From positions 54,189 through 118,188 of the forward strand of contig JAWLAN010000014.1 of NCBI GenBank assembly GCA_041395385.1: DNA of 64,000 bases, written 5' to 3'. This stretch comes from Gammaproteobacteria bacterium (GTDB taxonomy: Bacteria; Pseudomonadota; Gammaproteobacteria; JAJPIJ01). Positions 37,312 to 59,496 of this stretch are shown here, piece after piece. Each line of letters starts with the position of its first letter. Positions within the stretch are counted from its first letter, which is position 1. The translations under genes were made by a program, and so were the position numbers. Below the pieces are notes generated by a model, which was given only the letters and a program-made list of their open reading frames with translations, made no database searches and was not told where the DNA came from.

Positions 37312-37345
37312 CGCGCGGCGGCGGGCGGGGAGGACGCGGCGGGCC

Positions 37346-41532: not shown

Positions 41533-42342
41533 CTACATCCGAGTCGGTCCCGTCGTTGCAGCGAGCAGCATGTCCGCGATCGCCGGGCCGGATTCGGCGA
41601 GCGCGCTGTAGACCTGCACGAGATCGGCGCCGGCGCGCAGATAGCGGCCCGCGGTGTCCGCCGTGCGCACGCCGCCCACGGCGATGAGCGCGGTGCCCTC
41701 CAACCGCTCGCGCAACCTCGAGATCCGGCCGCAGATCGATTCGACCGACGGCCAGCGCTCGAAGGCCGCGACCACGCCGTCGTATCCCAGCGCGGCGGCG
41801 CGCCCCGCCGCCTCCGGGACGGACTGCGCGTCGTCCGGCAGCGCGGCCACCTTGACCAGCAGGGGAATGCGCCGCGAGAGCGTGCGGCCGGTCGCGTCGA
41901 CCTGGGCTCGCATGCGCTCGAGCAGCGTTTGCAGCGCCCGCCCCTCCGCCACCCCGTCGCGGCACGCGCTTCCGGGGCGGCTCAGGTTCACGACGAGAAA
42001 ATCGGCGAGCAGCGTCAGGGCGTGCGCGCCGACGGCGATCTCGGCCGCGGCAACCGTGTCGAGCTCGTCGCGCTGGCTGCCGATGCTGACCCCGATCACC
42101 GCGCCGCGCCGGCCGCACGCCGGCGCCGACTGCAGGCGATGGCAGGCGAGATTCCTGACGATGGGTTGCAGCATGGCGATCGCGCCCGCCCCGGCCGAGA
42201 CGTTGATCGTACCGACCTCGACGAAGGCGAAGCCCGCCGCCGAGAGCTCGGCCAGCTGGCTGCCGTCGCGGTCGTAGCCCGCCGCCACGCCGATGGGATG
42301 GGCGAACTCGATGCCCATCACCCGCCGCGGGCCGTTCGCCAT
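41533..42342 (-). CDS. dihydroorotate-dehydrogenase-like TIM-barrel protein (short, divergent)
   Basis: 'GIEFAHPIGVAAGYDRDG...GFAFVEVGT' and 'LIAVGGVRTADTAGRYLRAGADLVQVYS' resemble PyrD. The protein lacks the N-terminal membrane domain, and the 'NISSPNT' site reads 'NLSRPGS'. Confidence 0.6.
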   Translation of the reverse strand: MANGPRRVMGIEFAHPIGVAAGYDRDGSQLAELSAAGFAFVEVGTINVSAGAGAIAMLQPIVRNLACHRLQSAPACGRRGAVIGVSIGSQRDELDTVAAAEIAVGAHALTLLADFLVVNLSRPGSACRDGVAEGRALQTLLERMRAQVDATGRTLSRRIPLLVKVAALPDDAQSVPEAAGRAAALGYDGVVAAFERWPSVESICGRISRLRERLEGTALIAVGGVRTADTAGRYLRAGADLVQVYSALAESGPAIADMLLAATTGPTRM

Positions 42343-42355
42343 GGACGTTACCGCC

Positions 42356-43447
42356 TCACGCGGCCGCCTGCCGCCGCGCGGCGAAGTCGCGCATGAACGC
42401 GAGCAGCGCCTCCACCGAGGAATCCGGTGTCGCGTTGTGCAGGCTCACCCGCACGCCGCCGACGGCGGAGTGTCCCTCGAGATGATGCAGGCCGCGCCGC
42501 GCCGCCTCGTCCAGGAACTCGCGCTCCAGCTCGCCGCTGGGCAGGCGGAAGCAGAGGTTCACCTGCGATCGGTGCGCCGGCTCGACCGGGCAGAGATAGA
42601 GCGGGCTGCCGTCGATGACTTCGTACAGCCGCGCGCTGCGGCGCGCCGCGTGCTGCGCGAAGGTCGCCACTCCGCCGTTGCGGCGCATCCAGGCGAACAT
42701 CAGCCCGGCGCAGTAGACGCTGAACGTGGGCGGCGTGTTGACGCAGCCGTTGCACTCGGCCTGCCGGCGGTAGTCGAACGCCGCCGGTGTGACGCCTGCG
42801 GCGCCGCGCAGCATGTCCTCGCGGACGATGACGATGGTCAATCCGGCGCAGCCGGCGTTCTTCTGCGCGCTGGCGTAGAGCAGGCCGCAGCGGGCGACCT
42901 CGATCGGCTGCATGAGAAAGTCCGAGGTCACGTCGGCGACCAGCGGCACCGCGCCCGTGTCTGGCAGCTCGCGGAACTGCACGCCGTGGGCGGTCTCGTT
43001 GGTGGTGAGGTGGCAGTAGGCGGCGGCGGGGTCGAGCTGCCAGCTCTCTCGCGGCGGGATGCCGCAGAAACCCTCGCGCGCGCCGCTGGCCGCGATGCGC
43101 ACATTCCCATGGCGCCCCGCCTCGGCCGCCGCGCGCTCCGACCACAGGCCGGTCACGACGTAGTCGGCGCCGCGGCCGGGCGCCAGGAGATTCATCGCCA
43201 GGATGCCGAAGTGCGCGTAGGCGCCGCCCTGCAGAAAAAGGATGTGATGGCTCGCCGGCACGTCGAGCAAGGCCCGCAGGTCGCGCTCGGCGGCGGCTGC
43301 GATGGCTCGATATTCCGGGCAGGAGAACGGCATCTCCAGGACCGACATGCCGCTGCCGTGCCAGTCGAGCATCTCGTCGCGGATCTCGCGCAGGACCTCC
43401 TCCGGCAGGCACGAGGGGCCGGAGGAGAAGTTGTGGATCCGGCTCAT
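42356..43447 (-). CDS. serC: 3-phosphoserine/phosphohydroxythreonine aminotransferase
   Basis: Motifs include 'IHNFSSGPSCLPEEVL', 'GSGMSVLEM' and 'FLQGGA', with an 'AQKNAG' Lys site. Confidence 0.9.
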   Translation of the reverse strand: MSRIHNFSSGPSCLPEEVLREIRDEMLDWHGSGMSVLEMPFSCPEYRAIAAAAERDLRALLDVPASHHILFLQGGAYAHFGILAMNLLAPGRGADYVVTGLWSERAAAEAGRHGNVRIAASGAREGFCGIPPRESWQLDPAAAYCHLTTNETAHGVQFRELPDTGAVPLVADVTSDFLMQPIEVARCGLLYASAQKNAGCAGLTIVIVREDMLRGAAGVTPAAFDYRRQAECNGCVNTPPTFSVYCAGLMFAWMRRNGGVATFAQHAARRSARLYEVIDGSPLYLCPVEPAHRSQVNLCFRLPSGELEREFLDEAARRGLHHLEGHSAVGGVRVSLHNATPDSSVEALLAFMRDFAARRQAAA

Positions 43448-43472
43448 GACGGACGGGCGAACGGCCCGGTCC

Positions 43473-43970
43473 TCAGAACAGCGTGGGCGCGTGCGCCCCG
43501 GCGGTCATCAGGAAGACCGCGGGGAAGGACAGGATCGTGTTGGTGCGCGAGGACAGGAAGGTGATGCGCGAGCAGCGCACCCGCTCCGCGTGCGCCGCCG
43601 GCACGAAGCCCAGCACCTTCTTCTGGTGCGGCCACAGCACGAACCACAGGTTGGCCGTCATCAGCAGGCCGATCCACACGCCCAGGCCGAGCACGGCGAA
43701 CTGCCCCTGCAGCGTGAGCGCCTCGGTGAGGATGCCGCGGAACCACAGCATGTAGAGCCCGCTCGCCAGCACCACCAGCGAGGCGTACCGGAACGTGCCG
43801 TGCTCGCGCTGCGCGGCCTGCATGAACAGCTGGTCGGCCGCGGCCGTGTCCACGGGATCGACGGGCCGATAGCGCGGCCGCTGAACGACGTTCGCGTAGT
43901 TGTGGCCGATCCACACCAGCAGCCCGAGCAGGTGCAGCCAGCGGGCGAGCACGTACAGCTCCAGCGTCAT
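43473..43970 (-). CDS. hypothetical membrane protein (4 TM)
   Basis: 165 aa: 'LARWLHLLGLLVWIGHNYANVV..'. No confident family assignment. Confidence 0.55.
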   Translation of the reverse strand: MTLELYVLARWLHLLGLLVWIGHNYANVVQRPRYRPVDPVDTAAADQLFMQAAQREHGTFRYASLVVLASGLYMLWFRGILTEALTLQGQFAVLGLGVWIGLLMTANLWFVLWPHQKKVLGFVPAAHAERVRCSRITFLSSRTNTILSFPAVFLMTAGAHAPTLF

Positions 43971-44108
43971 ATCTCCGGCTCCTGATCCGAATCCTCCACC
44001 CGCCCTAGACCATCCAGCGCGCCAGCAGATACAGCAGCGCCGTCAGCAGCAGGCCGCACGCGACGGTGCCGCCCAGCGTCTCGTGCGGCAGCCTGAAGCG
44101 CGGCGGCC

Positions 44109-45257
44109 TCATCCGCCGCAACCCATGAACGCGGTGTTGATGCTGTCGCGCCGCCGCATGACGATCGGGCGGTGGCGGCGGTGCGGCGCCGACGCTTCCG
44201 CGACCGCCTCGACGACCAGGTGATGCTCCGGCGACTTCGCGCACACCGGGTCGGTGTTGGCGGCGTTGCCCGTGAGCAGGTAGGCCTGGCAGCGGCAGCC
44301 GCCGAAGTCCTGCTCCTTCTCCGGGCAGCTGCGGCACGGCTCCTTCATCCAGGCATCGCCGCGAAACTCGTTGAAGACCGGCGACTCGTGCCAGATCCAG
44401 GCGAGCGGCGACTCGCGCACGCTGGGAAACTCGAGGCCGGGGATCACGCGTGCCTCCTGACACGGCAGCGCGCTGCCGTCCGGCGCGATGGTGAGGTGGA
44501 TCGCCCCCCAGCCGTTCATGCAGGCCTTCGGCCGCTCGTCGAAGTAGTCCGGGATGACGAAGTAGATCGTCATCTTCTTGCCCAGCCGCTCCCGCGCACG
44601 CGCCACGGCGGCCTCGGCGGCGGCGATCTGCTCGCGGGTGGGCAGGAACTCCGAGCGGTTCAACAGCGCCCAGTTGTAGTACTGGATGTTGGCGAATTCC
44701 AGGTAGTCCACGCCGATCTCCTCGGCCAGCCTCAGGATCTCCTCGGTCTGATCGATGTTCTGCCGGCAGATCGGCACGTTCAGCACCATGGGGAAGCCGT
44801 GCTTCTTGATCTCGCGCGCCGCGGCGAGCTTGGCGTCGAAGGCCTTCGCCCCGACCAGCGAGTCGGTGATCGCGCGATCGCTGGACTGCAGGCTCAGCTG
44901 GATCTGCTTGAGCCCCGCGGCCTTCAGGGCCTGAAGCCGCTCGCAGCTCAGGCCGATTCCGGAGGTGATGAGGTTGGTGTAGAAGCCGAGGCGATCCGCC
45001 TCGCCCACCAGCTCCTCCAGGTCCTCGCGCAGCAGCGGCTCGCCGCCGGAGAAGCCCAGCTGCAGCGAGCCCATCGCGCGGGCCTCGCCCAGCACGCGCT
45101 TCCATTCCTCCGTGCTCAGCTCGTTGCGGTAGCTGTCGAAGTCCAGCGGATTGTTGCACCAGGCGCAGTGCAACGGGCAGCGGTAGGTGAGCTCGAGGAC
45201 GAGCCACATCGGGATGCGGTCGCCGTCAAGACTTAATCCTGATCCAGCCTTTGGCAT
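44109..45257 (-). CDS. pqqE: PQQ biosynthesis radical SAM/SPASM protein PqqE
   Basis: Motifs include 'LELTYRCPLHCAWCNNP', 'GFSGGEPLL' and the C-terminal 'CRSCPEKEQDFGGCRCQAYLLTGNAANTDPVC'. The start could instead be M17 (45209). Confidence 0.9.
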   Translation of the reverse strand: MPKAGSGLSLDGDRIPMWLVLELTYRCPLHCAWCNNPLDFDSYRNELSTEEWKRVLGEARAMGSLQLGFSGGEPLLREDLEELVGEADRLGFYTNLITSGIGLSCERLQALKAAGLKQIQLSLQSSDRAITDSLVGAKAFDAKLAAAREIKKHGFPMVLNVPICRQNIDQTEEILRLAEEIGVDYLEFANIQYYNWALLNRSEFLPTREQIAAAEAAVARARERLGKKMTIYFVIPDYFDERPKACMNGWGAIHLTIAPDGSALPCQEARVIPGLEFPSVRESPLAWIWHESPVFNEFRGDAWMKEPCRSCPEKEQDFGGCRCQAYLLTGNAANTDPVCAKSPEHHLVVEAVAEASAPHRRHRPIVMRRRDSINTAFMGCGG

Positions 45258-45513
45258 GAGAAGTCTCCAGGAAGCGGTACACGCCGGCGGACACGTCGGC
45301 GTTGGTATAGCGGCTGTTGAGATCGGCGACGATGTCGGCGGCGGTGCGTTGCCCGTCGCACAGCAGCAGGATGGCCGCGGCGGTCTCGTTGAGCTTGACC
45401 ACGCCCTCGGGGTAGAGCATCACGTGGGCCTGCTGGGGTTCCTCCCAGCGCAGCAGGTACAGCGGGTTCAGCAGCGGCACGTCACCGGCCGCGACGGTGT
45501 TGTTCTCGGTCAT
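45226..45513 (-). CDS. pqqD: PQQ biosynthesis peptide chaperone PqqD
   Basis: 95 aa: 'LRWEEPQQAHVMLYPEGVVKLNETAAAILLLCDGQRTAADIVADL'. Confidence 0.85.
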   Translation of the reverse strand: MTENNTVAAGDVPLLNPLYLLRWEEPQQAHVMLYPEGVVKLNETAAAILLLCDGQRTAADIVADLNSRYTNADVSAGVYRFLETSHAKGWIRIKS

Positions 45514-45560
45514 ACGGTGCGGGGAAGGACGGATGGAGCGATGCGCGGGCGCCGGAGGGA

Positions 45561-45590
45561 AAGGCCGGGCAGGATGATCCTCCCGGCCTT
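45561..45590 (-). terminator. GC-rich stem-loop 17 nt downstream of pqqA (attenuator/processing hairpin)
   Basis: On the minus strand, 'aaggccgggaggatcatcctgcccggcctt' forms 9+4 bp with one bulge. There is no T-tract, so it is likely a partial terminator, as described for other pqq operons. Confidence 0.45.
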
Positions 45591-45606
45591 CGCGTGCTCG
45601 CCCTGA

Positions 45607-45681
45607 TCAGCGCACGTACACGTACGCGGTGACTTCGAAGCCAAGACGCAGATCGCAATACGCGGGATCGATCCAGTTCAT
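45607..45681 (-). CDS. pqqA: PQQ precursor peptide PqqA
   Basis: Not in the ORF track because it is too short. My translation is 'MNWIDPAYCDLRLGFEVTAYVYVR' (24 aa), with the conserved E-x3-Y (EVTAY) crosslink pair. Confidence 0.8.
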   Translation of the reverse strand: MNWIDPAYCDLRLGFEVTAYVYVR

Positions 45682-45857: not shown

Positions 45858-45871
45858 TTGATTCATATCAA
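45858..45871. promoter_or_regulatory. perfect FNR-type box TTGAT-TCAT-ATCAA
   Basis: It lies in the 433-nt lower-GC divergent region between pqqA (start 45681) and the molybdoenzyme gene (start 46115). Confidence 0.6.
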
Positions 45872-46114
45872 GGTTCATCACAACCACGAGGTGGTCGAGA
45901 GCAGCCAAGACAGCGTGTACTCGCGCCGCAGCACGCGCCGCGCGCGATGCGAAGCGTCCAACGAGTCTTGATCAAGGTCATGTCCACGCGATTGCACGGG
46001 TGGAATAGTTGCGCCGCCAAGACTACGCACGCATCCACCGATCGCGCCATTCGCCGCAATGTACGTTCACTCTCTTTACGCGCCATGGCGCGCAGACGGA
46101 TTCGAGGCAGGGGG

Positions 46115-48241
46115 ATGACCGCCAGGATAGAGCGCTCCGACGCCGAACGCTTCACGCCGCCCGTCAACGGCGTGGTGCGCGGCGTGTGCCCGCACGACTG
46201 CCCGGACTGCTGCAGCGTGCTGTATCACGTGCGCGAAGGCAGGCTGCGAAAGATCGAGGGCAACCCCGATCACCCCACGACGCGCGGCTTCATCTGCCGC
46301 AAGTTCGCGCTATCCCCGAAACGCATTCACTCCCTGGACCGCCTGCAGACCCCGCTGCGCCGCTGCGGACCGAAGGGCGACGGGCGATTCGAGCGGATCT
46401 CGTGGCCGGCGGCGATCGAGGAGATCCGCGGGCGATGGCAGTCGATCGTCGCCGAGTCAGGACCGCGGTCGATCCTTCCGTTCTTCGGGTCAGGCACCGA
46501 AGGGCTGGTCAACGGCCGCATCGCCGGGCGGCGCTTCTTCAATCGCCTCGGCTCGCTGCAACTGGAACGCACCATCTGCACGAAGTCAGGGCGCACGGGC
46601 TTCGACTACACCATGGGGTCCTCCATCGGCGCCGACCCGCGCGCCGTCTCCGACTGCGAGCTGATCGTGCTGTGGGGCTGCAACATCGCCTGCACCAACA
46701 TTCATCAGCAGGCGCTGGTGCACGATGCCCAGGCGCGCGGTGCGATAGTGGTGGTCATCAACCCGATGCAGGTGAAGGGAACCGGCCGCGCCGATCTCAT
46801 CGTTCAGCCGCGTCCCGGCACCGACGCGGCGATCGCGCTGGCCATCATGCACGTGATCATCCGCGATCGCCTCCACGACCGATCATTCGTGGAGCGCCAT
46901 ACGCTCGGCTTCGAGCAGCTGCGTGAACGGGTCGCCGACTACGCCCCCGAGACGGTGGAGGGGATCGCCGGCGTGCCGGCCGCGGACATCGAGAAGCTGG
47001 CCGCCTGGTACGCGTCGACGGAGAGCTCGTTCATATACATAGGACCGGGCTGCCAGCGCCACAGCAACGGCGGCATGACGGTGCGCGCCATCTCCTGCCT
47101 GCCGGCGCTGACCGGCGCATGGGCGCAGCGTGGCGGCGGCGCCTACTTTCCCACCAGCACGGTATTCCCCGTGGAGACCGAGGCGCTGGAAGGGGCCTCG
47201 ATGCGGCCCAACCCGCCTGCCGGCTACAACATGATCGAGCTCGGCGCCATGCTGACAGAGCCGGGTCACGGCGTGCGCAGCCTCTACGTGTTCAACGGCA
47301 ATCCCGCGGCGACGCTCTACAACCAGGAGCGGCTGCGCCGCGGGCTGGAGCGCGAGGACCTGTTCACCGTGGCGCACGAGCAGTACCTGACCGACACGGC
47401 GAGGTACGCGGACATCGTGCTGCCAGCGACGTCGCACGTGGAGAATCTCGACCTGCTCTTCTCCTACTATCACTTCGGCGTCATGCTGAACCGCCCCGCC
47501 ATCCAGCCCGTGGGCGAGGCGCTCTCCAATCTCGATACCTTCCGGCTGCTCGCCGAGGCAATGGGCTTCCAGGAGCCCTGCTTCCGCCAGGACGCCTGGC
47601 AGGTGATCGAGGAGATACTGGCGCTGCGGCATCCCGCGCTCACCGGCGTCAGCGCCGAGCGCCTGCTCGAGCACGGCTGGTGTCCGGCCGCCGTCGAGGC
47701 GGCGCACGCGATGGTGCGGGACGGCCGCTTCCCGACGCCGTCGGGACGCATCGAACTGTACTCCCGGCGCATGAGCGATGACGGCTTCGATCCGCTGCCG
47801 GCGTACGTGCCGCTGCGCGAAGGCCTGGAGCGCACGCCGTCGCTCCATCAGCGCTACCCGCTTTATCTCATCACCCCGGCGTCGTGCTCGTTCCACAAGT
47901 CGAGCCATGCGCGCATCCGCGGCTGGGAGCGCTGGGAGGATCGCCCCACCCTTCTCATCCATCCGCGCGACGCGCACGCGCGCGGTATCGCGCATGACGA
48001 CGAGGTGAGGGTATTCAACGACCGGGGCGATTTCGTGCTGTGGGCGGCCATCGACAGCGGCGTGCGCCCCGGCGTCGTCGCCGCCACCGGCCTGTGGTGG
48101 GACGAGCGCTATCCGGAACGCCGCAACGCCAACCACACCACGCCGGACCTGCCGGGCGACATGGGCGGGGGGTCCACCTTCAACACCAACCTCGTGGAGG
48201 TCGCGCGCGGGAGGGGCGCGCCGAGCCATGCAACCGACTGA
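46115..48241 (+). CDS. cytoplasmic molybdopterin (bis-MGD) oxidoreductase, DMSO-reductase superfamily
   Basis: Starts at internal 'MTARIERS', with no Tat signal. The N-terminal Fe-S motif is 'CPHDCPDCCS'. Motifs 'LWGCNIACTNIH' and 'VVINPM' are present, and a C-terminal barrel includes 'LLIHPRDAHARGI'. Confidence 0.85.
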   Translation: MTARIERSDAERFTPPVNGVVRGVCPHDCPDCCSVLYHVREGRLRKIEGNPDHPTTRGFICRKFALSPKRIHSLDRLQTPLRRCGPKGDGRFERISWPAAIEEIRGRWQSIVAESGPRSILPFFGSGTEGLVNGRIAGRRFFNRLGSLQLERTICTKSGRTGFDYTMGSSIGADPRAVSDCELIVLWGCNIACTNIHQQALVHDAQARGAIVVVINPMQVKGTGRADLIVQPRPGTDAAIALAIMHVIIRDRLHDRSFVERHTLGFEQLRERVADYAPETVEGIAGVPAADIEKLAAWYASTESSFIYIGPGCQRHSNGGMTVRAISCLPALTGAWAQRGGGAYFPTSTVFPVETEALEGASMRPNPPAGYNMIELGAMLTEPGHGVRSLYVFNGNPAATLYNQERLRRGLEREDLFTVAHEQYLTDTARYADIVLPATSHVENLDLLFSYYHFGVMLNRPAIQPVGEALSNLDTFRLLAEAMGFQEPCFRQDAWQVIEEILALRHPALTGVSAERLLEHGWCPAAVEAAHAMVRDGRFPTPSGRIELYSRRMSDDGFDPLPAYVPLREGLERTPSLHQRYPLYLITPASCSFHKSSHARIRGWERWEDRPTLLIHPRDAHARGIAHDDEVRVFNDRGDFVLWAAIDSGVRPGVVAATGLWWDERYPERRNANHTTPDLPGDMGGGSTFNTNLVEVARGRGAPSHATD

Positions 48242-49085
48242 AATGATCGGCGAGCGCCTCCTGCATCGCGGCCTGGGCGGCGTGGAGCTGTTCGACTTTC
48301 CGCAGCAGTCCTGTGGCGAGCTGCGCCGCACGCTGGCCGGGCTGAGCCGGGAGGGCTATACGCGACTGAGCTTCCACTCCCCGATGCCGAGGCCGACCTA
48401 CTTCTGCCACAGCGGGGTGAGCTGCTTCTTCCTCCACGAAGACGCGTCGCTGCGCTATCTCTCCTACAGCGTGATCGAGGAGACGCTCAGCCACGCACGC
48501 GCATGGAACGCGGCCTACGTGGTGACGCACCTCACCTATGGGAAGACCGACACCAAGGACCGGGATTACGCGGTGCAACTGGCGCGTGCGGCCTGCATCC
48601 GGCTGGCGGCGCTGAGCGATCGCTACGAGATGCCGATTGACATCGAGTTCGCCGCCTACTCGAGCGCGTTCGCAAGTCCCGGGGACTTCCTCGCGGCCAT
48701 GAGCGGCTATCCGCAGCTCGGGATCTGCATCGACACCGGCCACGCCTCGCTGGGAGCCCGGATCCGGCAGCGCTCGTACATGGAGGACATACGCGCGCTC
48801 GCGCCGCGGGCTCGTTCCATGCACCTGTGGAACACGCGCGGCCCGGAGGATCCGCTGCATCGCGGGCACGTGCCGCTGCACCCGACGCAGAGCCCCGAGC
48901 AGGGCTGGGTCGACATGGAGGAGACCTTGCGCATCGTGCTCGGGCACAACCCGCGCATCAACATCGTCTTCGAGTACCCCGTCGCGGAGCTGACGGCGGA
49001 GATACGCGAGGGCTACGACTGGATCGCCGGGCTGGTCCGGCGCCACGCAAAAGACCAACAACCGCTACCAGGGGCATCGGCATGA
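48228..49085 (+). CDS. xylose-isomerase-like TIM-barrel (sugar phosphate isomerase/epimerase family) protein
   Basis: 285 aa with 'YVVTHL', 'IEFAAY', 'ICIDTGHA' and 'MHLWN', which look like the metal-ligand positions of this fold. It overlaps the molybdoenzyme stop. Confidence 0.65.
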   Translation: MQPTEMIGERLLHRGLGGVELFDFPQQSCGELRRTLAGLSREGYTRLSFHSPMPRPTYFCHSGVSCFFLHEDASLRYLSYSVIEETLSHARAWNAAYVVTHLTYGKTDTKDRDYAVQLARAACIRLAALSDRYEMPIDIEFAAYSSAFASPGDFLAAMSGYPQLGICIDTGHASLGARIRQRSYMEDIRALAPRARSMHLWNTRGPEDPLHRGHVPLHPTQSPEQGWVDMEETLRIVLGHNPRINIVFEYPVAELTAEIREGYDWIAGLVRRHAKDQQPLPGASA

Positions 49086-50566
49086 AGGAATTCAGGGTAC
49101 TGCTCATCAACTGCAACACCATGCTGGACACGCTCGTGACCGCCGGCATCGGGATACTGGCCGCGTGCCTGAAGAACAGCGGCGTCGAGGTGCGACTGTT
49201 CGACACCACCTTCTACAGGACCGCAGAGAAGACCGGCGACGAGGCGCGGGCGCAGGCCCTGCAGGTGAGAAAAACCGACTTCGCCGAGCTGGGCATCGTT
49301 CCCGAGGCCGGCGACGTCGTCGAGGACTTCCGCGACCTCGTCGAGTCCTACCGGCCGGATCTCATCGGTCTGTCCTGCATCGAGGTCACCTTCCCGCTCG
49401 GGCTGAGGCTGCTGAACGCGGTGCGCCACACCGGCATTCCGACGATCGCCGGCGGCGTGTATCCGACCTTCGCGCCGGACATCGTCATGCGCCACGCGGC
49501 GATCGACATGGTGTGCGTGGGCGAGGGCGAGCTGCCGCTCATGGAACTGTGCGAGAAGATGCGCCGGGGCGAGGACATCACCGCCATCCGCAACGTCTGG
49601 ATCAAGTGCGACGGCAAGCTCTACAAGAACCCGGTGCGCCCCGGCATCGACATGCGCCAGCTGCCCTACCAGGACTGGGACGTGTACGACCGTCGGCGGT
49701 TCTGGAAGCCCATGGGAGGGAAGATCTCGGTGACCGGCACCTTCGAGATGAACCGCGGCTGCCCCTACACCTGCACCTACTGCATCAACTCCGGGTTCGA
49801 TCAGCTCTACGGCCCGCTGGGCGGCTACTACCGCGAGCAGGACATCGGGCGGCTCATCGACGAGATGCTGGAGAAGAAGGAGAAGTACAACCTCGCCTAC
49901 GTCTACCTCGTGGCGGAGAGCTTTCTCACCACCAGCCGCAAGCGCGTTGAGGAGTTCGCGCGCCGCTACCCGGAGGTCGGACTGCCGTTCTGGGTGGAGG
50001 CGCGCCCGGAGTCGATCTCGACGGCCAAGGTGCAGGTCCTGAAGGACGTCGGCTGCGAGGGGATCAGCGTCGGTGTGGAGAGCGGCAACGAAGACTTGCG
50101 GCGCAACGTGCTGGGCCGCAACGTCGCCAACGACACCATCATCAAGGCCTTCGACCTGCTCGCCGACACCGGCATCCGGGTGAGCGCCAACAACATCATC
50201 GGCTTCCCCACCGAGACGCGCGAGATGATCTTCGAGACCATCGAGCTCGACCGGCGCATCCAGCCGCACGGCGTCATGGTCAGCTTCTTCAGCCCCTACC
50301 GCGGCTGCACCCTGCGCGAGGTCTGCGAGACCGAGGGCTACATCGGCGCGGAGGACATCGCCCTGGACTACCGCCTCGGGCCGACCATGGACATGCCGCA
50401 GTTGCGCCGTCGCGAGCTCGTCGGCCTGCACCGCGCCTTCCCGCTCTACGTCAAGTTCCCGAAGAGCGAGTGGGACAACATCCGGATCTGCGAAGGCGAA
50501 GGTCCGGAGGCGGAGGCGGCGTTCAGCGAGTACGCGCGCCGCTACGTCGAGACTTTCATGCGCTAG
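49082..50566 (+). CDS. B12-binding-domain radical SAM protein
   Basis: The ATG overlaps the upstream stop (ATGA). The N-terminal B12-like domain includes 'VLLINCN...LIGLSC' and 'IAGGVYPT'. The radical SAM motif is 'RGCPYTCTYC'. Confidence 0.85.
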   Translation: MKEFRVLLINCNTMLDTLVTAGIGILAACLKNSGVEVRLFDTTFYRTAEKTGDEARAQALQVRKTDFAELGIVPEAGDVVEDFRDLVESYRPDLIGLSCIEVTFPLGLRLLNAVRHTGIPTIAGGVYPTFAPDIVMRHAAIDMVCVGEGELPLMELCEKMRRGEDITAIRNVWIKCDGKLYKNPVRPGIDMRQLPYQDWDVYDRRRFWKPMGGKISVTGTFEMNRGCPYTCTYCINSGFDQLYGPLGGYYREQDIGRLIDEMLEKKEKYNLAYVYLVAESFLTTSRKRVEEFARRYPEVGLPFWVEARPESISTAKVQVLKDVGCEGISVGVESGNEDLRRNVLGRNVANDTIIKAFDLLADTGIRVSANNIIGFPTETREMIFETIELDRRIQPHGVMVSFFSPYRGCTLREVCETEGYIGAEDIALDYRLGPTMDMPQLRRRELVGLHRAFPLYVKFPKSEWDNIRICEGEGPEAEAAFSEYARRYVETFMR

Positions 50567-50585
50567 CCGGCGGATCCGCGCGCAC

Positions 50586-51506
50586 ATGTCCAGGGTCGCA
50601 TTTCTCGGCACGGGTATCATGGGATCGGCCATGGTCCGGCGCCTGCTCGCCTGCGGTCACGAGGTCGTCGTCTACAACCGCACGGCCCCCAAGGCCGCGC
50701 CGCTCCAGGAGGCGGGCGCGGTGCTCGCACGCAGTGCGACGGACGCGGTCACCGGGGCGAGCTTCGTCGTTTCCATGGTGGGCGACGACGAGGCCTCGCG
50801 GGAGATCTGGCTGGGCGCGCGCGGGGCGCTGGCGGGGCGTCCCGCCGCCGAGGTGATCGCCATCGAGCACTCCACCCTTTCGCACGACTGGATCCGGGAG
50901 TTGAGTGGCGTGCTCTCGAACGTCGGGGTGCCGTTCATCGACGCTCCCGTCACCGGCGGCCCGGACGGCGCCGCGGCCGGCGAACTGACCGTGCTCGCCG
51001 GGGCCGAAGGCGCGACGCTCGAGCAGGCCCGCGCACTGCTGCAGGCCTACGCGCGCGAGCTGGTGCATTTCGGCCCGCCGGGTGCGGGCACCGCCTACAA
51101 GCTCATCGTCAATCTCATCGCCACGGCGCAGATCACGGCGCTCGCCGAGGGGATGTCGGCCGCGGAGCGGGCGGGCCTGGACCTCGCGCTCGTCGCCGCG
51201 ACGCTGCGCAAGGGCACGGTCGCGAGCCCGGTGGTCAGGTACCTCACCGAGCGGATCGCGCAGGGCGATCACGATCACGTCTATTTCGCCACGCGCTGGC
51301 GATCCAAGGACGCCGGCTACGGGCTGCGGCTGGCCGCCGAGCTCGGCCAGCCGGTACCCACCTGCGAGGCGGCCGGCAAGCTCTTCGAGCTGGCAATGCA
51401 GGCCGGCCTCGGCGAGCGGAACTCCAGCGTGATCGTCGAGGTGCTGCGCCGCCTGGCTGACCGCCAGGGCGACACGGCGTCGACACCGATGATTCCACGA
51501 CCATGA
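50586..51506 (+). CDS. NAD(P)-dependent oxidoreductase, 3-hydroxyisobutyrate/6-phosphogluconate dehydrogenase family
   Basis: Motifs include 'VAFLGTGIMGSAMVRRL', 'FIDAPVTGG' and 'AYKLIVN'. Confidence 0.8.
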   Translation: MSRVAFLGTGIMGSAMVRRLLACGHEVVVYNRTAPKAAPLQEAGAVLARSATDAVTGASFVVSMVGDDEASREIWLGARGALAGRPAAEVIAIEHSTLSHDWIRELSGVLSNVGVPFIDAPVTGGPDGAAAGELTVLAGAEGATLEQARALLQAYARELVHFGPPGAGTAYKLIVNLIATAQITALAEGMSAAERAGLDLALVAATLRKGTVASPVVRYLTERIAQGDHDHVYFATRWRSKDAGYGLRLAAELGQPVPTCEAAGKLFELAMQAGLGERNSSVIVEVLRRLADRQGDTASTPMIPRP

Positions 51507-51560
51507 ACCTGCCCGATTCGCCTCACGCGGCAGACGCCGCCCTCATGCCGGTGCCGATGC

Positions 51561-52563
51561 ATGCGCCCGCGCATTGAGCTGGTGTGCCCGGCCGGCGGCC
51601 TGCCGGCGCTGAAGGCCGCGGTCGACAACGGCGCCGACGCCGTGTACATCGGCTTTCGCGACGGCACCAATGCGCGCAACTTCCCGGGCCTGGGATTCAG
51701 CGCCGAGGAGGCCGCGCAGGGCGTGGACTACGCGCACACGCGCGGCGCGCAGGTGCTGGCGGCGCTCAACACCTACCCGGACACCGAGCGCTGGGGCGCG
51801 GCCACGGCCGCACTCGCGACCGCGGCCTCCGTCGGGGTGGACGCCGTCATCCTCGCCGACCCGGGCCTGATGGCGCACGCCGCGCGCGCGCACCCCGGCC
51901 TGCGGCTGCACCTCTCGGTGCAGGGCTCGGCCACCAACCGCCACGCGATCGCCTTCTATCACCGCCACTTCGGCGTGCGGCGCGTGGTGCTGCCGCGCGT
52001 GCTGTCGCTGGCGCAGGTGCTGAGCCTGGTCGGCAAGGTCCCGGTGGAGATCGGTGTTCTGCTTCGGCAGCCTGGCGTGATGGTCGGGCCGCTGCGCGCT
52101 GTCGGCGTACGTTACCGGCAAGTCGCCCAACGTGCACGGCGTGTGCTCGCCCGCCTCGGCCGTGCGCTGGGAGGAGACTGCCGCGGGCCGGCAGTCGCGC
52201 GTCGGCGGCATGCTGATCGATCGCTACCAGGACGGTCAGCCGGCAGCCTATCCGACCATCTGCAAGGGCCGCTACCGCGTCGGCGACCACGTCTATTACG
52301 CGATCGAGGAGCCCACCAGCCTCAACGTGATCGAGATCCTCCCCGAGCTGGTCCGGGGAGGCGTGGCCGCGCTGAAGGTGGAGGGCCGCCAGCGCGGTCC
52401 CGCCTACGTGGCGCGCGTCACGAAGGTGCTGCGCGCCGCCCTCGATGCCTGCTGCGCCGACCCCGCGCGGTTCACCCCGCGGCAGGAATGGCTGGACGAG
52501 CTCAACTCCATGGCCGAGGGCCGCTGTCACACCCTCGGCGCCTATCACCGCCCATGGCAATGA
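51561..52563 (+). pseudogene. ubiU: UbiU (U32-family O2-independent ubiquinone hydroxylase subunit), disrupted by clustered indels at 52052-52090
   Basis: The N-terminal half is in frame 1: 'ELVCPAGGLPALKAAVDNGADAVYIG...GTNARNF'. The C-terminal half is in frame +1: 'CSPASAVRWEE...LIDRYQDGQPAAYPTICKGRY...LGAYHRPWQ'. The segment for 'FGSLC.M.EGRC' reads 'FGSLA*WSGRC', with a TGA at 52078-52080. Confidence 0.7.
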
Positions 52564-53450
52564 AGCTCTCTCTCGCACCCATACCCTGGTTCTGGGAACG
52601 CGCGCGCGTCTTCGACTTCTACGCGTCGATCGCCGCGACGCCGATCGACATCGTCTATCTCGGCGAGACCGTCTGTTCGAAGCGGCGCGAGCTGCGGCCG
52701 GAGGACTGGCTGCAGATCGCCGCGGCGCTGTCCGAGGCCGGCAAGGAGGCGGTGCTCTCGACGCTGACCCTCATCGAGGCGGAATCCGAGCTCGCGACGC
52801 TGAAGCGCATCGTGGAAAACGGCCGTTACCTGGTCGAGGCCAACGACATGGCCGCCGTGGAGATGCTGAGCGAGCGCGAGCTGCCGTTCGTGATCGGCCC
52901 GCAGGTGAACGTCTACAACGGCGAGACCCTGGCGCTGCTGGCGCGCCTCGGCGCGCGCCGCTGGGTGGTGCCGACGGAGATCTCCAGGGCACAGCTCGCC
53001 GCCCTGCCCGACCGGCGCTTCCTGCAGATGCAGACCGAGGTGCAGATATACGGCGACCTTGCGCTCGCCTACTCGGCGCGCTGCTACACCGCCCGCGCGC
53101 ACAACCTGCAGAAGGACGCCTGCGCCTTCGTCTGCCGCGAGTATCCCGACGGCCTGCCGCTGGCCACCATGGAGGATGAGCCCTTTCTCGTGCTGAACGG
53201 CATCCAGACCCGCTCCGCGGCCGTCTGCGACCTGCTGGCGGATTGGGACGACTTCGGGGCCCTGCAGATCGAGGTCGGCCGCATCGTGCCGCGGTCCACG
53301 GGCACGGCGCGGATCATCGACCTCGCGCACCAGGTGGCCGTGGGCCGCCTGGACGCCGCCGCCGCGGCGCGCGAGCTCGCCGCGCAACGGGCAGCGCCGC
53401 ACTGCAACGGCCACTGGCACGGTGCAGCCGGGATGGAGCAGGTGGGATGA
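52560..53450 (+). CDS. ubiV: UbiV (U32-family partner of UbiU)
   Basis: 'MKLSLAPIPWFWERARVFDFY...YLGETVCSKRR', 'LALAYSARCYTARA...KDAC..VC' and 'VLNGIQT' match my recollection of E. coli YhbV. The ATG overlaps the ubiU stop. Confidence 0.85.
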   Translation: MKLSLAPIPWFWERARVFDFYASIAATPIDIVYLGETVCSKRRELRPEDWLQIAAALSEAGKEAVLSTLTLIEAESELATLKRIVENGRYLVEANDMAAVEMLSERELPFVIGPQVNVYNGETLALLARLGARRWVVPTEISRAQLAALPDRRFLQMQTEVQIYGDLALAYSARCYTARAHNLQKDACAFVCREYPDGLPLATMEDEPFLVLNGIQTRSAAVCDLLADWDDFGALQIEVGRIVPRSTGTARIIDLAHQVAVGRLDAAAAARELAAQRAAPHCNGHWHGAAGMEQVG

Positions 53451-53456
53451 GGGAGG

Positions 53457-53957
53457 CTAGCGCGCGGCGATCGCGGCGCGGGCCCGGCGCAGGCCGCGCA
53501 CCGCATGCCCCGCGATCGGGGCCGGCAGCACCGCGCGCAGGTGCGCCTCCCAGTCGAACTCCTGCGCGTCGAGCAGGTTCTTGACGTGCACGCCGACCTC
53601 GGTGTCACCCTCGATGCACAGCCGGCGCTGGAAGAACAGCGCGTCGGGGTCCTCGCGCCGCGTGGCCAGCCGCAGGAATCCCTCCACGTCGCCGCGGATG
53701 ACGACGTCGGGCGCGCGCGTGTCCACGGCGCGCAGCCGACCGCCATCGATGCGGAAACACACCGTGCGCCTCAGATCGGTGACCTCGATGGCGACGCTGC
53801 GCCCGTCGATCTCGCGCAGGCGCGAGCTGAAGGCCTGGCCGCGCGCGAGGTGGTTGAACAGCAGCGCGCCGGCCGGGGCCTGCAGCGCGCCGGGCACGAT
53901 ACGCAACGACCAGCGCAGCAGTTGCGAGGCGCGTGAGATGCAAGAGGAGGCGGACAT
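53457..53957 (-). CDS. ubiT: UbiT (SCP2-domain ubiquinone biosynthesis accessory factor)
   Basis: The last 166 codons of the 1181-aa track ORF. '[31 protein letters not shown]' matches YhbT 'RKQDPDTLFFQRRLVIEGDTELGLYVKNLMD'. Confidence 0.8.
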
Positions 53958-53994: not shown

Positions 53995-54008
53995 TTGATC
54001 CGGATCAG
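53995..54008. promoter_or_regulatory. FNR-type box TTGAT-CCGG-ATCAG in the ubiT/ubiD divergent region
   Basis: It matches 9 of 10 consensus positions. Its centre is about 44 nt upstream of the ubiT ATG, and the box ends 7 nt before the ubiD ATG. Confidence 0.55.
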
Positions 54009-55481: not shown

Positions 55482-55661
55482 GCCGCCGGCCGCGCGCGGG
55501 TGGCCGGACCCGCCATCCAGGCCGCGCCTCGGCAGCACCGGGCGATGGCGATCGCGGCCGGGCTCCATGGGCGCGCGGAGATCTTGATCCGGGTCATTTA
55601 CGCGGCCGACCGCAGGCGTATCACGCCTCCTTACAGTCTCCCCGGAGCGGAGGACCCGATC

Positions 55662-57602
55662 GTGCCCGACGCCGCGATGCCGCAGGCGGGGCTTCCGCCG
55701 GGCCGGCCGGTGCCCGTGCGGCTGCTCCTCGTCAACCCGCGCTTCCCTGAAAGCTTCTGGAGCTTTCGCTGGGCACTCGGCCGCATCCTGCCGGGCAAGC
55801 GCGCCCTGAATCCTCCCCTCGGGCTCGCCACGCTGGCGGCCCTGTGCCCGCCGCACTGGTCCGTGGAGATCGTCGACGAGAACGTCGAGACCGTGCCGCT
55901 GCATCCGGCGGCCGATCTCGTCGGCGTCTGCGGCATGGGGGTGCAGTTCCCTCGTCAGCAGGAGCTGCTGCGCTACTATCGCGGCAAGGGCTATTACGTC
56001 GTGGCCGGAGGCAGCTACGCCTCCCTGTGCCCCGAGCGCTACACGGAGACTGCCGACACCGTCGTCGCCGGCGAGGCCGAGAACATCTGGCCCGCGTTCT
56101 GCTCGGATTACGCGTGCGGGCGGCCCAGGCGGCTCTACAAGGAAGAGGGCATCGTGGATCTGCGGCGCTCGCCCGTGCCGCGGTTCGATCTCCTGAAACT
56201 CGGGCGCTACGCGACCGTCGGCGTGCAGTTCTCCCGCGGCTGCCCCTACCGCTGCGACTTCTGCGACATCATCGTGATGTTCGGCCGCCGCCCGCGGACC
56301 AAGGGCCTCGAACAGGTCGCCGCAGAGCTCGACCTGCTGCGCTCGCTGGGCGTCAGCAACCTCTTCTTCGTCGACGACAACCTCATCGGCAACCGGCCCA
56401 AGGCCAGGGAGCTGCTCGACTTCCTGGCCCGGTACCAGCAACGCCACGGCTACCGCTTCCGATTCGGAACGCAGGTCTCGCTGAACCTCGCCGAGGACCG
56501 CGATCTCATGCGGCTGCTCCGCGAGGCCAACTTCAACTGGGTCTTCGTCGGCATCGAATCGCCGGACGAGGCCAGCCTGCGGGAGATGAACAAGGTCCAG
56601 AATCTCCGCCACGACATGCTCGAGGCCGTACGCACGGTCTACGCACATGGCATCGACGTGCTGGCCGGATTCATCGTCGGCTTCGATCACGACACGGCGG
56701 AGACCTTCGAGCGTCAGCACCGCTTCATCGTGGCCTCCGGCATCCAGGTGGCGATGATCGGTCTGCTGACGGCGCTGCCCAGGACGCCGCTGTACGCGCG
56801 GCTCGCTCTCGAGGGCCGCCTGGTCGAGTCCGACGGGTCGCATTGCGACAATGCCAAGCCGCGGACCAACCTGGTGCCGAAGCGCATGAGCTATGCGGAG
56901 ATGATCGCCGGATACAAGTCGCTCTGCCGCCGCCTGTCGGTCGATCGACGCATCGCCCAGCGCATCCGCAACAAGCTGCGCTATCTCGGGGGTCCCTGCC
57001 ACAGCGGGTACTCGCTCGGATCACAAATTCGAATCGTGGCCCGCCTGGTCTTCCATGGATTGCTGCGGGCGCCCGCGAGCCGCCTGCCGTGGTTTCTGCA
57101 CTCCATGATGGCCTGCCCGCCCCGGGCCTGGGCACAGCTGGTCGCCGACTGGATAGCGGGCCTTTCCATCCAGGACTACGTGCAGCGGCACCTCGGCGAT
57201 CCATCCGTCACGGAACTGCGCCGTGCCCGGTCCACCGCCGAGTCGATCCGCCGCCGCTGGTCGCACTGTCTGCAGCGCGGGAGCCTGCAGGTCGCCGTCG
57301 AGGACGGCACTGCCGGCTGCAGCGTAATGCTCGGTTTCAAACGGGGAATCGATCGCCGCTTCTTCGCCGGGGTGGCGGGCTGTCTCAGGCGGCTCCTGCG
57401 GCGCTCCGCCGTGAGCATTACGCTGCGGGTCGATGCCATGAGCCATGGTGAATGCGCCGGACTGGCGCGTCTGCTCCGTCAGCTCGCCGCCGACGGCGAT
57501 CGAATCGCCGTCTACGTGGACGAGAGCATCCGTCACCTGCTTCCGATCGACTCCTCGGTGTTTCACCTCGTTCTAAACGCGCCCGGGGCCGCCTCGGACT
57601 GA
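55662..57602 (+). CDS. B12-binding-domain radical SAM protein with a DUF4070-like region and an extra C-terminal domain
   Basis: Motifs include 'LLLVNPRFPESFW...PPLGLATLAA', 'SRGCPYRCDFCD' and 'GIESPDEASLREMNK'. I chose the GTG at 55662, 8 nt after GGAGG; the ATG at 55677 is an alternative. Confidence 0.8.
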   Translation: MPDAAMPQAGLPPGRPVPVRLLLVNPRFPESFWSFRWALGRILPGKRALNPPLGLATLAALCPPHWSVEIVDENVETVPLHPAADLVGVCGMGVQFPRQQELLRYYRGKGYYVVAGGSYASLCPERYTETADTVVAGEAENIWPAFCSDYACGRPRRLYKEEGIVDLRRSPVPRFDLLKLGRYATVGVQFSRGCPYRCDFCDIIVMFGRRPRTKGLEQVAAELDLLRSLGVSNLFFVDDNLIGNRPKARELLDFLARYQQRHGYRFRFGTQVSLNLAEDRDLMRLLREANFNWVFVGIESPDEASLREMNKVQNLRHDMLEAVRTVYAHGIDVLAGFIVGFDHDTAETFERQHRFIVASGIQVAMIGLLTALPRTPLYARLALEGRLVESDGSHCDNAKPRTNLVPKRMSYAEMIAGYKSLCRRLSVDRRIAQRIRNKLRYLGGPCHSGYSLGSQIRIVARLVFHGLLRAPASRLPWFLHSMMACPPRAWAQLVADWIAGLSIQDYVQRHLGDPSVTELRRARSTAESIRRRWSHCLQRGSLQVAVEDGTAGCSVMLGFKRGIDRRFFAGVAGCLRRLLRRSAVSITLRVDAMSHGECAGLARLLRQLAADGDRIAVYVDESIRHLLPIDSSVFHLVLNAPGAASD

Positions 57603-57712: not shown

Positions 57713-57726
57713 TTGATACGGATCAA
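57713..57726. promoter_or_regulatory. perfect FNR-type box TTGAT-ACGG-ATCAA upstream of the PAS-SARP regulator
   Basis: Its centre is about 73 nt upstream of the ATG at 57793. 'gataat' at 57766-57771 could be a -10 element. Confidence 0.6.
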
Positions 57727-57792
57727 CGTGCGAGCGGGCTTGAACTGCTCGCGGCGTGAACTCAAGATAATGGGTTTTTTGGGGGAGGTCGG

Positions 57793-58962: not shown

Positions 58963-59173
58963 TCGCCCGGCGACCGCCCGCCGCTCGAACCCGCAATCCC
59001 GCTGCGCATGATCGAGGCGGGCGGCGTTCCCCGCCATCCCCCCGCGGCCCGATCTCCGCCGCGTCTCGCGCCCGCTCCGCCCGTCCGATCGCCACCCGTC
59101 ACACTCGCCGGCGCGGCCATGCGCGCGCGCCGATCAACGCCTGCGCAACGGTGATGCGCCGGGCTCCCGTCGT

Positions 59174-59192
59174 TGTTACCGGACTGTTACCG
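59174..59192 (+). promoter_or_regulatory. tandem direct repeat TGTTACCG x2 with 11-nt periodicity just upstream of a -10-like 'cataca' (candidate SARP binding site)
   Basis: 'TGTTACCGgacTGTTACCG'. The second heptamer ends 7 nt before 'cataca' (59199-59204). The small ORF starts at 59239. Confidence 0.45.
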
Positions 59193-59238
59193 CCGCGCCA
59201 TACACAGTGACTTCAACTCGAGGTCGCGTGCGAGAGCG

Positions 59239-59496
59239 ATGAAGCCGGACGACGACGCTGCGGCATCCTTCGTGGTGCGGATCTGGATGGAACGGACGAC
59301 GAACGGGGAGCCGGCGTGGCGCGGGCACATACGCCACGTCCAGGGCGAGAGCGAGTGCTACTTTCGCGATCTCGGCGAGATGCGCGGGTTCGTCGAGCGG
59401 CTGAGCGGCGTACGCATGGCCTGCCAGCCCACGAGAAGAAAGAGGAGTCAGCGACATGGCGACGCCATCGGCGCGGAAGGGGGTTCGGATGCTTGA
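59239..59496 (+). CDS. small hypothetical protein (85 aa)
   Basis: 'MKPDDDAAASFVVRIWMERTTNGEPAWRGHIRHVQGESECYFRDLGEMRGFVERL'. GC3 is high. Its 3' end contains the SD for the next gene, so the two are probably translationally coupled. Confidence 0.5.
   Translation: MKPDDDAAASFVVRIWMERTTNGEPAWRGHIRHVQGESECYFRDLGEMRGFVERLSGVRMACQPTRRKRSQRHGDAIGAEGGSDA

Follow-up and report, generated by a model that had tools for sequence, protein, structure and literature searches.

Why do four enzyme genes without a characterised orthologue lie tightly packed in front of ubiU and ubiV, the genes for O2-independent ubiquinone hydroxylation, in a gammaproteobacterium? This arrangement occurs in a 64,000-nucleotide (nt) stretch of a Gammaproteobacteria bacterium (assembly GCA_041395385.1, contig JAWLAN010000014.1, positions 54,189 to 118,188; hereafter the window), with a G+C content of ~70%. 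A first-pass annotation of the locus had proposed that the four enzymes, a molybdenum (Mo) oxidoreductase, a TIM barrel protein, a radical SAM enzyme that depends on B12 (rSAM) and an NAD-dependent dehydrogenase, are co-transcribed with ubiUV behind an FNR box and supply hydroxylation and C-methylation of a quinone or another aromatic ring. Here we find that the four genes form a conserved cassette of their own, and we tentatively favour, with a little less than even confidence, an FNR-type oxygen-limitation operon that joins this autonomous cassette, with phosphonate or polar head-group biosynthesis as its evolutionary home, to ubiUV.

Six plus-strand coding regions occupy positions 46115-53450, and Pfam and NCBIfam profile searches recovered in them the domain content assigned earlier. 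The regulatory sites and genes of the locus are the following.

45858-45871: perfect FNR/CRP-family palindrome, TTGATTCATATCAA; it falls in the divergent region of 433 nt that separates pqqA (ATG 45681, minus strand) from the Mo gene (ATG 46115)
45968-45981: weak second FNR-like site, TTGATCAAGGTCAT, with 2 mismatches (1 mismatch in the equivalent site of the relative L001)
46115-48241, plus strand: cytoplasmic Mo/tungsten (W)-bis-PGD oxidoreductase, 708 aa, with Fe4S4, Molybdopterin and Molydop_binding domains
48228-49085, plus strand: xylose-isomerase-like TIM barrel (Pfam AP_endonuc_2), 285 aa
49082-50566, plus strand: B12-binding-domain rSAM, 494 aa (Pfam Radical_SAM 71.9 bits and B12-binding 56.1 bits, both above the gathering scores)
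50586-51506, plus strand: NAD(P)-dependent beta-hydroxyacid dehydrogenase of the generic HIBADH/tartronate-semialdehyde reductase family, 306 aa
51561-52563, plus strand: ubiU, disrupted, matched by the NCBIfam UbiU model in two pieces (1-162 and 174-331)
52560-53450, plus strand: ubiV, intact (NCBIfam UbiV 370 bits, cut-off 275; alternative start 52554)
53457-53957, minus strand: ubiT (SCP2 domain), convergent with ubiV (NCBIfam UbiT 122.6 bits, cut-off 46.9)
53995-54008: FNR-like box with 1 mismatch, TTGATCCGGATCAG, between ubiT and ubiD, conserved in the relatives L001 and L009
54015-55481, plus strand: ubiD, 4-hydroxy-3-polyprenylbenzoate decarboxylase (NCBIfam 803 bits, cut-off 788)

The gaps and overlaps reported previously proved exact on a coordinate check: -14 (48241/48228), -4 (49085/49082), +19 (50566/50586), +54 (51506/51561) and -4 (52563/52560). 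A simple scan likewise agreed that no terminator-like site lies between the six genes, its only plus-strand match (52041) falling within ubiU. The block had been drawn from position 45858; the perfect TTGAT-N4-ATCAA palindrome is indeed located there, but no gene starts at that point, as the box lies outside the Mo reading frame, 244 nt before its ATG at 46115, which is preceded by an AGGGGG Shine-Dalgarno-like motif, and 177 nt from the pqqA ATG. Four FNR-type matches with at most one mismatch were found in the window, against 0.33 expected, only two of them being perfect palindromes, and the box at 45858 is conserved in L001 and L009. FNR-type boxes also occur 70-160 nt 5′ of the cassette in many loci, among them some that lack ubiUV, with perfect palindromes in L017, L036, L038 and L034 and one mismatch in L072. 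In the window clade, by contrast, the 54-nt gap before ubiU holds no FNR-like site, so ubiUV are most simply read from the cassette promoter. No sigma-70-like hexamers were found, and a Moco or cobalamin riboswitch in the 244-nt leader was rejected, as no Rfam match appeared even at E <= 1. The shared strand, the operon-like packing and the lack of terminator-like sites support, at the level of sequence, the earlier prediction that the six genes form one anaerobic, co-transcribed unit. UbiV and UbiT both rank as orthologues by their NCBIfam scores, and the locus resembles the FNR-activated ubiUV/ubiT locus of E. coli in the 4-nt ubiU/ubiV overlap, the adjacent ubiT and the presence of FNR-type boxes. 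It differs from E. coli in that ubiUV have no proximal FNR site and follow four unrelated genes, and in that the region of the Fe-S cysteines of ubiU is broken.

To establish how far this arrangement extends, we compared 76 genome loci and 38 metagenome loci, together with the contexts of individual homologues. The loci were scored by tblastn with a fixed query panel; greedy open reading frame (ORF) calling gave antisense artefacts in high-GC loci. Nearly every locus in which rSAM identity reaches 55% or more has the TIM barrel and rSAM genes side by side, usually with the Mo gene upstream and a dehydrogenase gene present. The Mo, TIM barrel, rSAM and dehydrogenase genes form a conserved cassette that is 50-77% identical across phyla, with orthologues at this level in Brocadiales/Scalindua of the Planctomycetota, Rokubacteria, Binatia and Gemmatimonadota. 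Homologues of the rSAM are 70-77% identical across phyla, the one in Magnetospirillum sp. XM-1 being 65% identical, and the Mo enzyme has 50-61% identical orthologues in Alpha- and Gammaproteobacteria, Planctomycetota and Binatia. The HIBADH-type dehydrogenase gene stands 3′ of the rSAM gene in Proteobacteria, Gemmatimonadota, Rokubacteria and Binatia; in Planctomycetota it is replaced by an Iso_dh-family dehydrogenase and an LPG_synthase_TM protein.

The link to ubiUV is narrower. The first-pass annotation had anticipated a neighbourhood conserved across genomes, and this was borne out in part: ubiUV adjoins the cassette in 14 of the 60 Proteobacteria-type loci, but among the 19 loci with at least 4 kb on both flanks it is present in 6 and missing from 13. 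One relative with 91% rSAM identity (L086) carries the cassette and no ubiUV. In Gammaproteobacteria, ubiUV lies downstream of the cassette or, in L013, inverted upstream of it; in Alphaproteobacteria, ubiT-ubiU-ubiV precedes the cassette, with or without the Mo gene, and these UbiT, UbiU and UbiV copies exceed the NCBIfam cut-offs. Because gene order differs between the two classes, we consider the cassette-ubiUV link to be real; no neighbour other than ubiUV, with or without ubiD, recurs from one proteobacterial lineage to another. Literature searches found no published account of the cassette with ubiUV or with phosphonate genes, and the cassette-ubiTUV neighbourhood is a real, partial and apparently undescribed pattern.

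Two further details of cassette surroundings were recorded. An IS110-family transposase gene lies directly upstream of the cassette in L086 (321-1394), which hints that the cassette moves as a unit. In the alphaproteobacterial locus L089 (16714-21017; ubiT-ubiU-ubiV-TIM-rSAM-dehydrogenase), a corrinoid methyltransferase set comprising a RACo activase, a pterin-binding protein and a corrinoid protein is found ~5 kb downstream, which may be coincidental.

What the cassette enzymes might do was approached through their families, since none of the four has a characterised orthologue and all NCBIfam equivalog scores fall far under the cut-off. Its three domains and a candidate metal-ligand residue place the first enzyme in the Mo/W-bis-PGD (DMSO reductase) family. 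It has an N-terminal Fe4S4 domain (CPHDCPDCC) and no Tat signal, and the Cys of its TICTKSG motif aligns with a Cys of T. kivui FdhF in 7qv7 at what we take to be the Sec/Cys metal-ligand position; by this alignment TICTKSG Cys is the likely metal ligand. The nearest solved relative is acetylene hydratase (2e7z, E 1e-53), and the enzyme falls in none of the characterised subfamilies compared (Fdh, Nas, BisC, Dms, Phs, acetylene hydratase): its NCBIfam scores do not exceed 259 bits, whereas the cut-offs start at 440.

The TIM barrel belongs to a narrow family with only 91 detectable homologues, which invariably accompanies the rSAM. Its sole NCBIfam match is a weak one to the CbiR phosphodiesterase (27 bits, cut-off 105), and a sequence search against solved structures gave no match. 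The predicted structure (pLDDT 92) gave generic fold matches only, to sugar epimerases/isomerases and Endo IV at a TM score of ~0.6, and profile comparison with an approximate E. coli Endo IV sequence, in which Endo IV-like ligands aligned weakly, reached a probability of 45%. Invariant His, Asp and Glu residues among the homologues, together with the CbiR match, hint at an Endo IV-like metal phosphoesterase, as a lead only.

The rSAM enzyme combines a CxxxCxxC motif (C227/C231/C234), whose three cysteines are invariant among homologues, with an N-terminal B12-binding Rossmann domain. A comparison with known class B methylases, suggested in the first-pass annotation, agrees on motif and domain but leads to no characterised subfamily (Fom3/PhpK/HpnR methylases, BchE, HpnJ or BzaD); HpnJ, the best match, scores 107 bits where the cut-off is 578. 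Among solved structures the enzyme is closest to AprD4 (6fd2, E 4e-16) and then to the methylase QCMT (8e-10). As AprD4 is a non-cobalamin dehydratase (PMC12931638), the methyltransferase activity suggested earlier is not established.

Genes of phosphonate biosynthesis were found beside several relatives of the cassette. In the Rhodospirillales locus L085, a phosphoenolpyruvate (PEP) mutase-nucleotidyltransferase fusion (PEP_mutase+NTP_transferase) and phosphonopyruvate decarboxylase (Ppd) genes are followed by the Mo, TIM barrel, rSAM and dehydrogenase genes, the cassette being on the same strand, and then by PEPCK. In L024, genes for a PEP mutase-cytidylyltransferase (Ppm-CyT) and Ppd are divergent from the cassette; both loci are alphaproteobacterial. 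The Brocadiales loci contain genes for a Ppd-like protein, a class-V aminotransferase, an NTP transferase and two CDP-OH transferases, followed by Mo, Iso_dh, TIM barrel, rSAM and LPG_synthase_TM genes. Deeper in the family are basal rSAM homologues of 40-48% identity, one of which served as the root of the neighbour-joining tree; they have no TIM barrel partner, and six such loci from Omnitrophota, Planctomycetia, Victivallales and DPANN-type archaea place the rSAM gene amid Ppm-CyT, Ppd and aminotransferase genes. PEP mutase genes were thus identified in the relatives L085, L024, L063, L067, L069, L074, L081 and L082.

Three known systems offer comparisons for these strings of genes. The Group 1 phosphonolipid clusters of Burkholderiales comprise Ppm, Ppd, a 2-aminoethylphosphonate (AEP) transaminase, a 2-oxoglutarate oxygenase, cytidylyltransferases and CDP-alcohol transferases, and in such aerobic clusters the oxygenase holds the tailoring position (PMC8942020). 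The Brocadiales loci similarly join Ppd-like, class-V aminotransferase, NTP transferase and CDP-alcohol transferase genes with the cassette, but they lack the O2-dependent oxygenase and have Mo, Iso_dh, TIM barrel and rSAM genes at the tailoring positions. By analogy, the cassette may be an oxygen-independent counterpart of that oxygenase. In Streptomyces, fosfomycin is made by Fom1 (PEP mutase and cytidylyltransferase), Fom2 (Ppd), the reductase FomC, the B12-dependent rSAM C-methylase Fom3, the hydrolase FomD and the epoxidase Fom4. Fom3 is listed as a Csp3 methylase (PMC12931638). The L085 string resembles this set in its PEP mutase-nucleotidyltransferase fusion, Ppd, B12-domain rSAM, NAD(P) dehydrogenase and possible phosphodiesterase. 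It differs in that the cassette dehydrogenase and TIM barrel come from other families than FomC and FomD, that Fom3 is likened by description only, that a Mo/W enzyme stands in place of the O2/H2O2-dependent epoxidase, and that the window lacks Ppm, Ppd and cytidylyltransferase. The third comparison is the AprD4/AprD3 pair of apramycin deoxygenation, an rSAM diol dehydratase and an NADPH reductase: here, too, a dehydrogenase gene directly follows the rSAM gene and AprD4 is the nearest solved protein, but the match covers only the rSAM core (residues 195-425), and AprD4 is non-cobalamin whereas the window rSAM has a Pfam B12-binding domain.

Guided by the likeness to Fom1-4/FomC/FomD and AprD4/AprD3, from which the chemistry of the four enzymes is inferred, we propose that the cassette comprises a Cys-ligated Mo/W-bis-PGD enzyme, a metal-dependent TIM barrel, a B12-domain rSAM and a beta-hydroxyacid dehydrogenase, and that it is probably an autonomous, anaerobically induced module that tailors a phosphonate or head-group metabolite. 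The dehydrogenase would interconvert an aldehyde and an alcohol that neighbour an acidic group; phosphonoacetaldehyde and 2-hydroxyethylphosphonate would be one such pair. The rSAM might modify an unactivated carbon of a phosphonate or cytidylyl-phosphonate, either by Fom3-like methylation or by AprD4-like dehydration followed by reduction, and the TIM barrel might be a phosphodiesterase of the Endo IV/CbiR kind or an isomerase. The Mo/W enzyme would carry out a water-dependent oxidation or hydration in place of the O2-dependent tailoring step of aerobic phosphonate clusters. In this lineage the cassette would have been recruited into an island of oxygen-independent biosynthesis genes, with a putative anaerobic pyrroloquinoline quinone (PQQ) cluster, ubiT and ubiD, and ubiUV, having no FNR site of its own, would be read from the cassette promoter. 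We propose that common anaerobic regulation brings O2-independent biosynthetic modules together, which would explain why the cassette adjoins ubiUV; as the cassette also occurs in ubiquinone-free phyla, sometimes beside phosphonate genes, it probably represents an anaerobic pathway of its own with a switch in common with ubiUV.

The surroundings of the six genes bear on this proposal and contain the following features.

41533-42444, minus strand: PyrD-like gene
42356-43447, minus strand: SerC-like gene
43473-43970, minus strand: PuuD-N-like membrane protein
45607-45681, minus strand: pqqA (MNWIDPAYCDLRLGFEVTAYVYVR), the start of the cluster 41533-45681, with pqqD and pqqE next
55500-57602, plus strand: second B12-binding radical SAM protein, with a DUF4070 domain, 19 nt after ubiD
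57713-57726: perfect FNR palindrome, TTGATACGGATCAA, just upstream of a regulator gene
57760-61267: PAS + Trans_reg_C + BTAD (SARP-type) regulator, then a cytochrome bd-like oxidase gene

The region 57713-61267 looks like part of the same oxygen-limitation island, and the pqq cluster, ubiT with its FNR-like box, ubiD, the second B12-rSAM, the FNR box with the regulator and the bd-like oxidase together make up an island of oxygen-limitation functions. The open reading frame 41533-42444 had been considered a pyrD pseudogene and is better explained as the PyrD-like member of a published pqqAED-puuD-serC-pyrD cluster. This cluster has been proposed as a candidate anaerobic PQQ route in denitrifiers, a route that is postulated and not identified, and in Hyphomicrobium denitrificans it lies near ubiXDTUV with a fatty-acid gene set in between (PMC12423496). 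The window shares with the H. denitrificans island, a published precedent for the grouping of co-regulated anaerobic biosyntheses, the cluster of pqqA-D-E, puuD-N, serC-like and pyrD-like genes beside anaerobic ubi genes; it differs in having the cassette where H. denitrificans has fatty-acid synthesis genes between the pqq and ubi blocks, and regulation in that organism was studied via SoxR/sHdrR. The pqq neighbourhood of the cassette recurs in L001, L009 and L090 and in the distinct lineage L013/L094, L013 carrying the same blocks in a rearranged order.

Two observations concern single members of the island. The second B12-rSAM gene also occurs in L001 and L010, but none was detected in L009. 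In L013/L094, a gammaproteobacterial lineage from Guaymas Basin, an FNR-like box shared with ubiT lies upstream of ubiD, pqqA, pqqD and pqqE, which follow one another head to tail on a single strand; the pqq genes, candidates for an anaerobic PQQ route, may therefore be co-transcribed with ubiD in this lineage.

Several observations weigh against the phosphonate or head-group proposal. No tblastn match to PEP mutase, Ppd or cytidylyltransferase was obtained in the 64-kb window, the annotation of which is partial, and Ppm/Ppd genes are adjacent in only 2 of the 60 Proteobacteria-type loci. No PEP mutase was seen within 10 kb in the Brocadiales loci, where the gene upstream of the Ppd-like gene in L008, considered as a candidate, is not one. 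The TIM barrel fold is generic and its alignment with Endo IV weak, and the rSAM fits no characterised subfamily, its best solved relative not binding cobalamin. The operon and its promoter are predicted from sequence, and the 45858 box, which is 244 nt away from the start codon, might act on the divergent pqqA operon instead. Finally, ubiUV as the sole recurrent proteobacterial neighbour could signify functional coupling in place of shared regulation.

This last point leads to the view, close to that of the first-pass annotation, that the cassette and UbiU, UbiV and UbiT together modify ubiquinone, or some related prenylated aromatic, without O2 in an accessory or alternative way, for example by extra hydroxylation, C-methylation, supply of a ring precursor, or supply of an oxygen donor or electron acceptor for the U32 hydroxylases. 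The recurrence of ubiUV in 14 of 60 loci, in at least three gene orders across Alpha- and Gammaproteobacteria, with tight junctions in every arrangement and with alphaproteobacterial copies that are true UbiT, UbiU and UbiV by NCBIfam cut-offs, speaks for it, as do the still unknown oxygen donor of UbiUV (PMC6747719; PMC10470549) and the unknown source of 4-hydroxybenzoate in some Alphaproteobacteria (PMC12423496). We nevertheless consider it improbable. Ubiquinone pathways are confined to Pseudomonadota (PMC11707229), whereas orthologous cassettes occur in phyla without ubiquinone, and the close relative with 91% rSAM identity and the 13 of 19 well-flanked loci have no ubiUV nearby, so the four upstream enzymes do not qualify as members of the UbiU-UbiV-UbiT system. 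In E. coli, C- and O-methylation of ubiquinone by UbiE and UbiG is the same with and without oxygen, the two routes differing in their hydroxylases only (PMC6747719); anaerobic ubiquinone is made there with UbiTUV and shared enzymes only, and hence an additional hydroxylase or methylase is not required. Moreover, the window clade and L013 share a common rearranged ancestral block, so the gammaproteobacterial cases are not independent, and in L085 the cassette lies directly downstream of Ppm/Ppd on the same strand. Quinone modification by the cassette is thus not supported. Some functional coupling to the U32 hydroxylases is possible, if rather unlikely, and we would give similarly limited weight, or slightly more, to the cassette being an unrecognised O2-independent module truly coupled to ubiT-ubiU-ubiV, for instance through a membrane phosphonate or head-group compound or a cosubstrate for the quinone system.

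A different account keeps the adjacency to ubiUV purely regulatory and places the substrate outside the phosphonates, as an amino-alcohol phosphate, a cobamide (through CbiR-like remodelling and a BzaD-like rSAM) or a hopanoid or lipid head group. Most proteobacterial cassettes stand alone without Ppm/Ppd, the planctomycetotal cassette is flanked by LPG_synthase_TM and CDP-alcohol transferase genes with no Ppm seen, and the family matches of two enzymes point the same way, CbiR being the sole NCBIfam match of the TIM barrel and HpnJ, BchE and BzaD-type models the best, all weak, for the rSAM. Against this, eight loci representing at least six lineages have true PEP-mutase genes next to the cassette or to deeper relatives of its rSAM, and no cobamide or hopanoid genes recur beside the cassette; we regard this account as doubtful, though less so than a role in quinone modification. 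It is far less probable that the cassette replaces PqqB and PqqC as the O2-independent late steps of PQQ synthesis for the divergent pqqA-pqqD-pqqE genes, with one FNR box common to both. It is true that these genes lie directly upstream, that no pqqB or pqqC was found among the window ORFs scanned, that the FNR box sits within the shared divergent region, that the same neighbourhood is found in L001, L009, L090 and L013/L094, and that an anaerobic PQQ route has been postulated and not identified (PMC12423496). However, adjacency to pqq genes is limited to two related gammaproteobacterial lineages, the published late-step candidates puuD-N, serC-like and pyrD-like are already present on the pqq strand, and loci and phyla that have the cassette but no pqq genes in its vicinity are widespread. 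We therefore retain, with the reserve stated at the outset, the FNR-type operon of an autonomous phosphonate or head-group cassette with ubiUV.

Replacements for oxygen-requiring biosynthetic steps are still emerging, UbiUV having been described only from 2019 and anaerobic PQQ synthesis being unsolved, and a cassette found in at least five phyla at 50-77% identity, with FNR-type boxes upstream and four proteins that lack a characterised orthologue, is a candidate for another. If it does carry out O2-free phosphonate tailoring, it would open an anaerobic C-P chemistry in which a Mo/W enzyme takes a role so far held by iron oxygenases, possibly with phosphonolipids in anammox bacteria. Coupling to UbiTUV, if that is the case instead, would make it relevant to the question of which oxygen donor the U32 hydroxylases use, and the ubiTUV neighbourhood would mark a new anaerobic pathway. 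The locus also calls for caution in neighbourhood-based inference, as anaerobic modules cluster for regulatory reasons.

The first-pass annotation had listed both ubiU and ubiV among the six genes; ubiV is intact, and ubiU is disrupted in the window by three small deletions.

52053-52086, plus strand: ubiU lesion; 2, 1 and 2 nt are deleted, with partial loss of the Glu, Cys and Glu codons in VEIEVFCFGSLCVMVEGRC

Compared with L001 and L009 (~93% DNA identity), in which ubiU is intact and encodes 335 aa, 2 nt are missing at 52053, 1 nt at 52075 and 2 nt at 52086, all within 34 nt. The deletions shift the frame and bring a TGA codon into frame, and with these between them the two pieces of the UbiU equivalog model score 237 and 234 bits against a cut-off of 440, with no full-length match. 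Loss of the T at 52075 removes the first Cys codon of the UbiU Fe-S motif Cx6Cx16Cx38C, which is kept in L001 and L009, so the set of four Cys ligands is incomplete in the window; the lost residue corresponds to C169 of E. coli UbiU, in which the four Fe-S cysteines were defined (PMC6747719). Across 5.3 kb of cassette coding sequence (46170-51470) we found zero frameshifting indels relative to the same two relatives; the lesion is therefore local, and general assembly noise was ruled out as its cause. The comparison leaves either a real inactivation of ubiU in this genome or a local assembly error. An assembly or consensus artefact, with a working UbiUV in the organism, is a serious possibility that we nonetheless place below an even chance: three small deletions within 34 nt are an odd natural pattern, two of them take GA out of TCGAGG, and ubiV, ubiT and ubiD are intact and conserved, but the freedom of the neighbouring 5.3 kb from any other such indel argues against it.

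The disrupted sequence also has a consequence for annotation. Frame 1 from 51561 is stop-free into ubiV and yields a 629-aa chimeric ORF (51561-53450, plus strand), made up of the UbiU N-terminal half, ~165 Arg/Pro-rich residues read out of frame and the whole of UbiV, which an automatic annotator would call one fused U32 protein.

Farther upstream, the window has a lower G+C content (0.63-0.66, against ~0.70 elsewhere) between 20000 and 30000, a segment that begins in the rpoD region, runs past a tRNA gene (22308-22380) and may have been inserted; few ORFs between 22100 and 27800 passed the codon-bias filter. A cluster of choline/betaine-type metabolism genes lies at 29648-38143 on the plus strand, 8-16 kb upstream of the cassette, and encodes a ProV-like ABC ATPase, a choline/aminoglycoside-kinase-like protein (GntI-like) and an FAD oxidase-GcvT fusion of the sarcosine/dimethylglycine oxidase type. 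In L001, electron transfer flavoprotein (ETF) genes follow the FAD oxidase-GcvT fusion.

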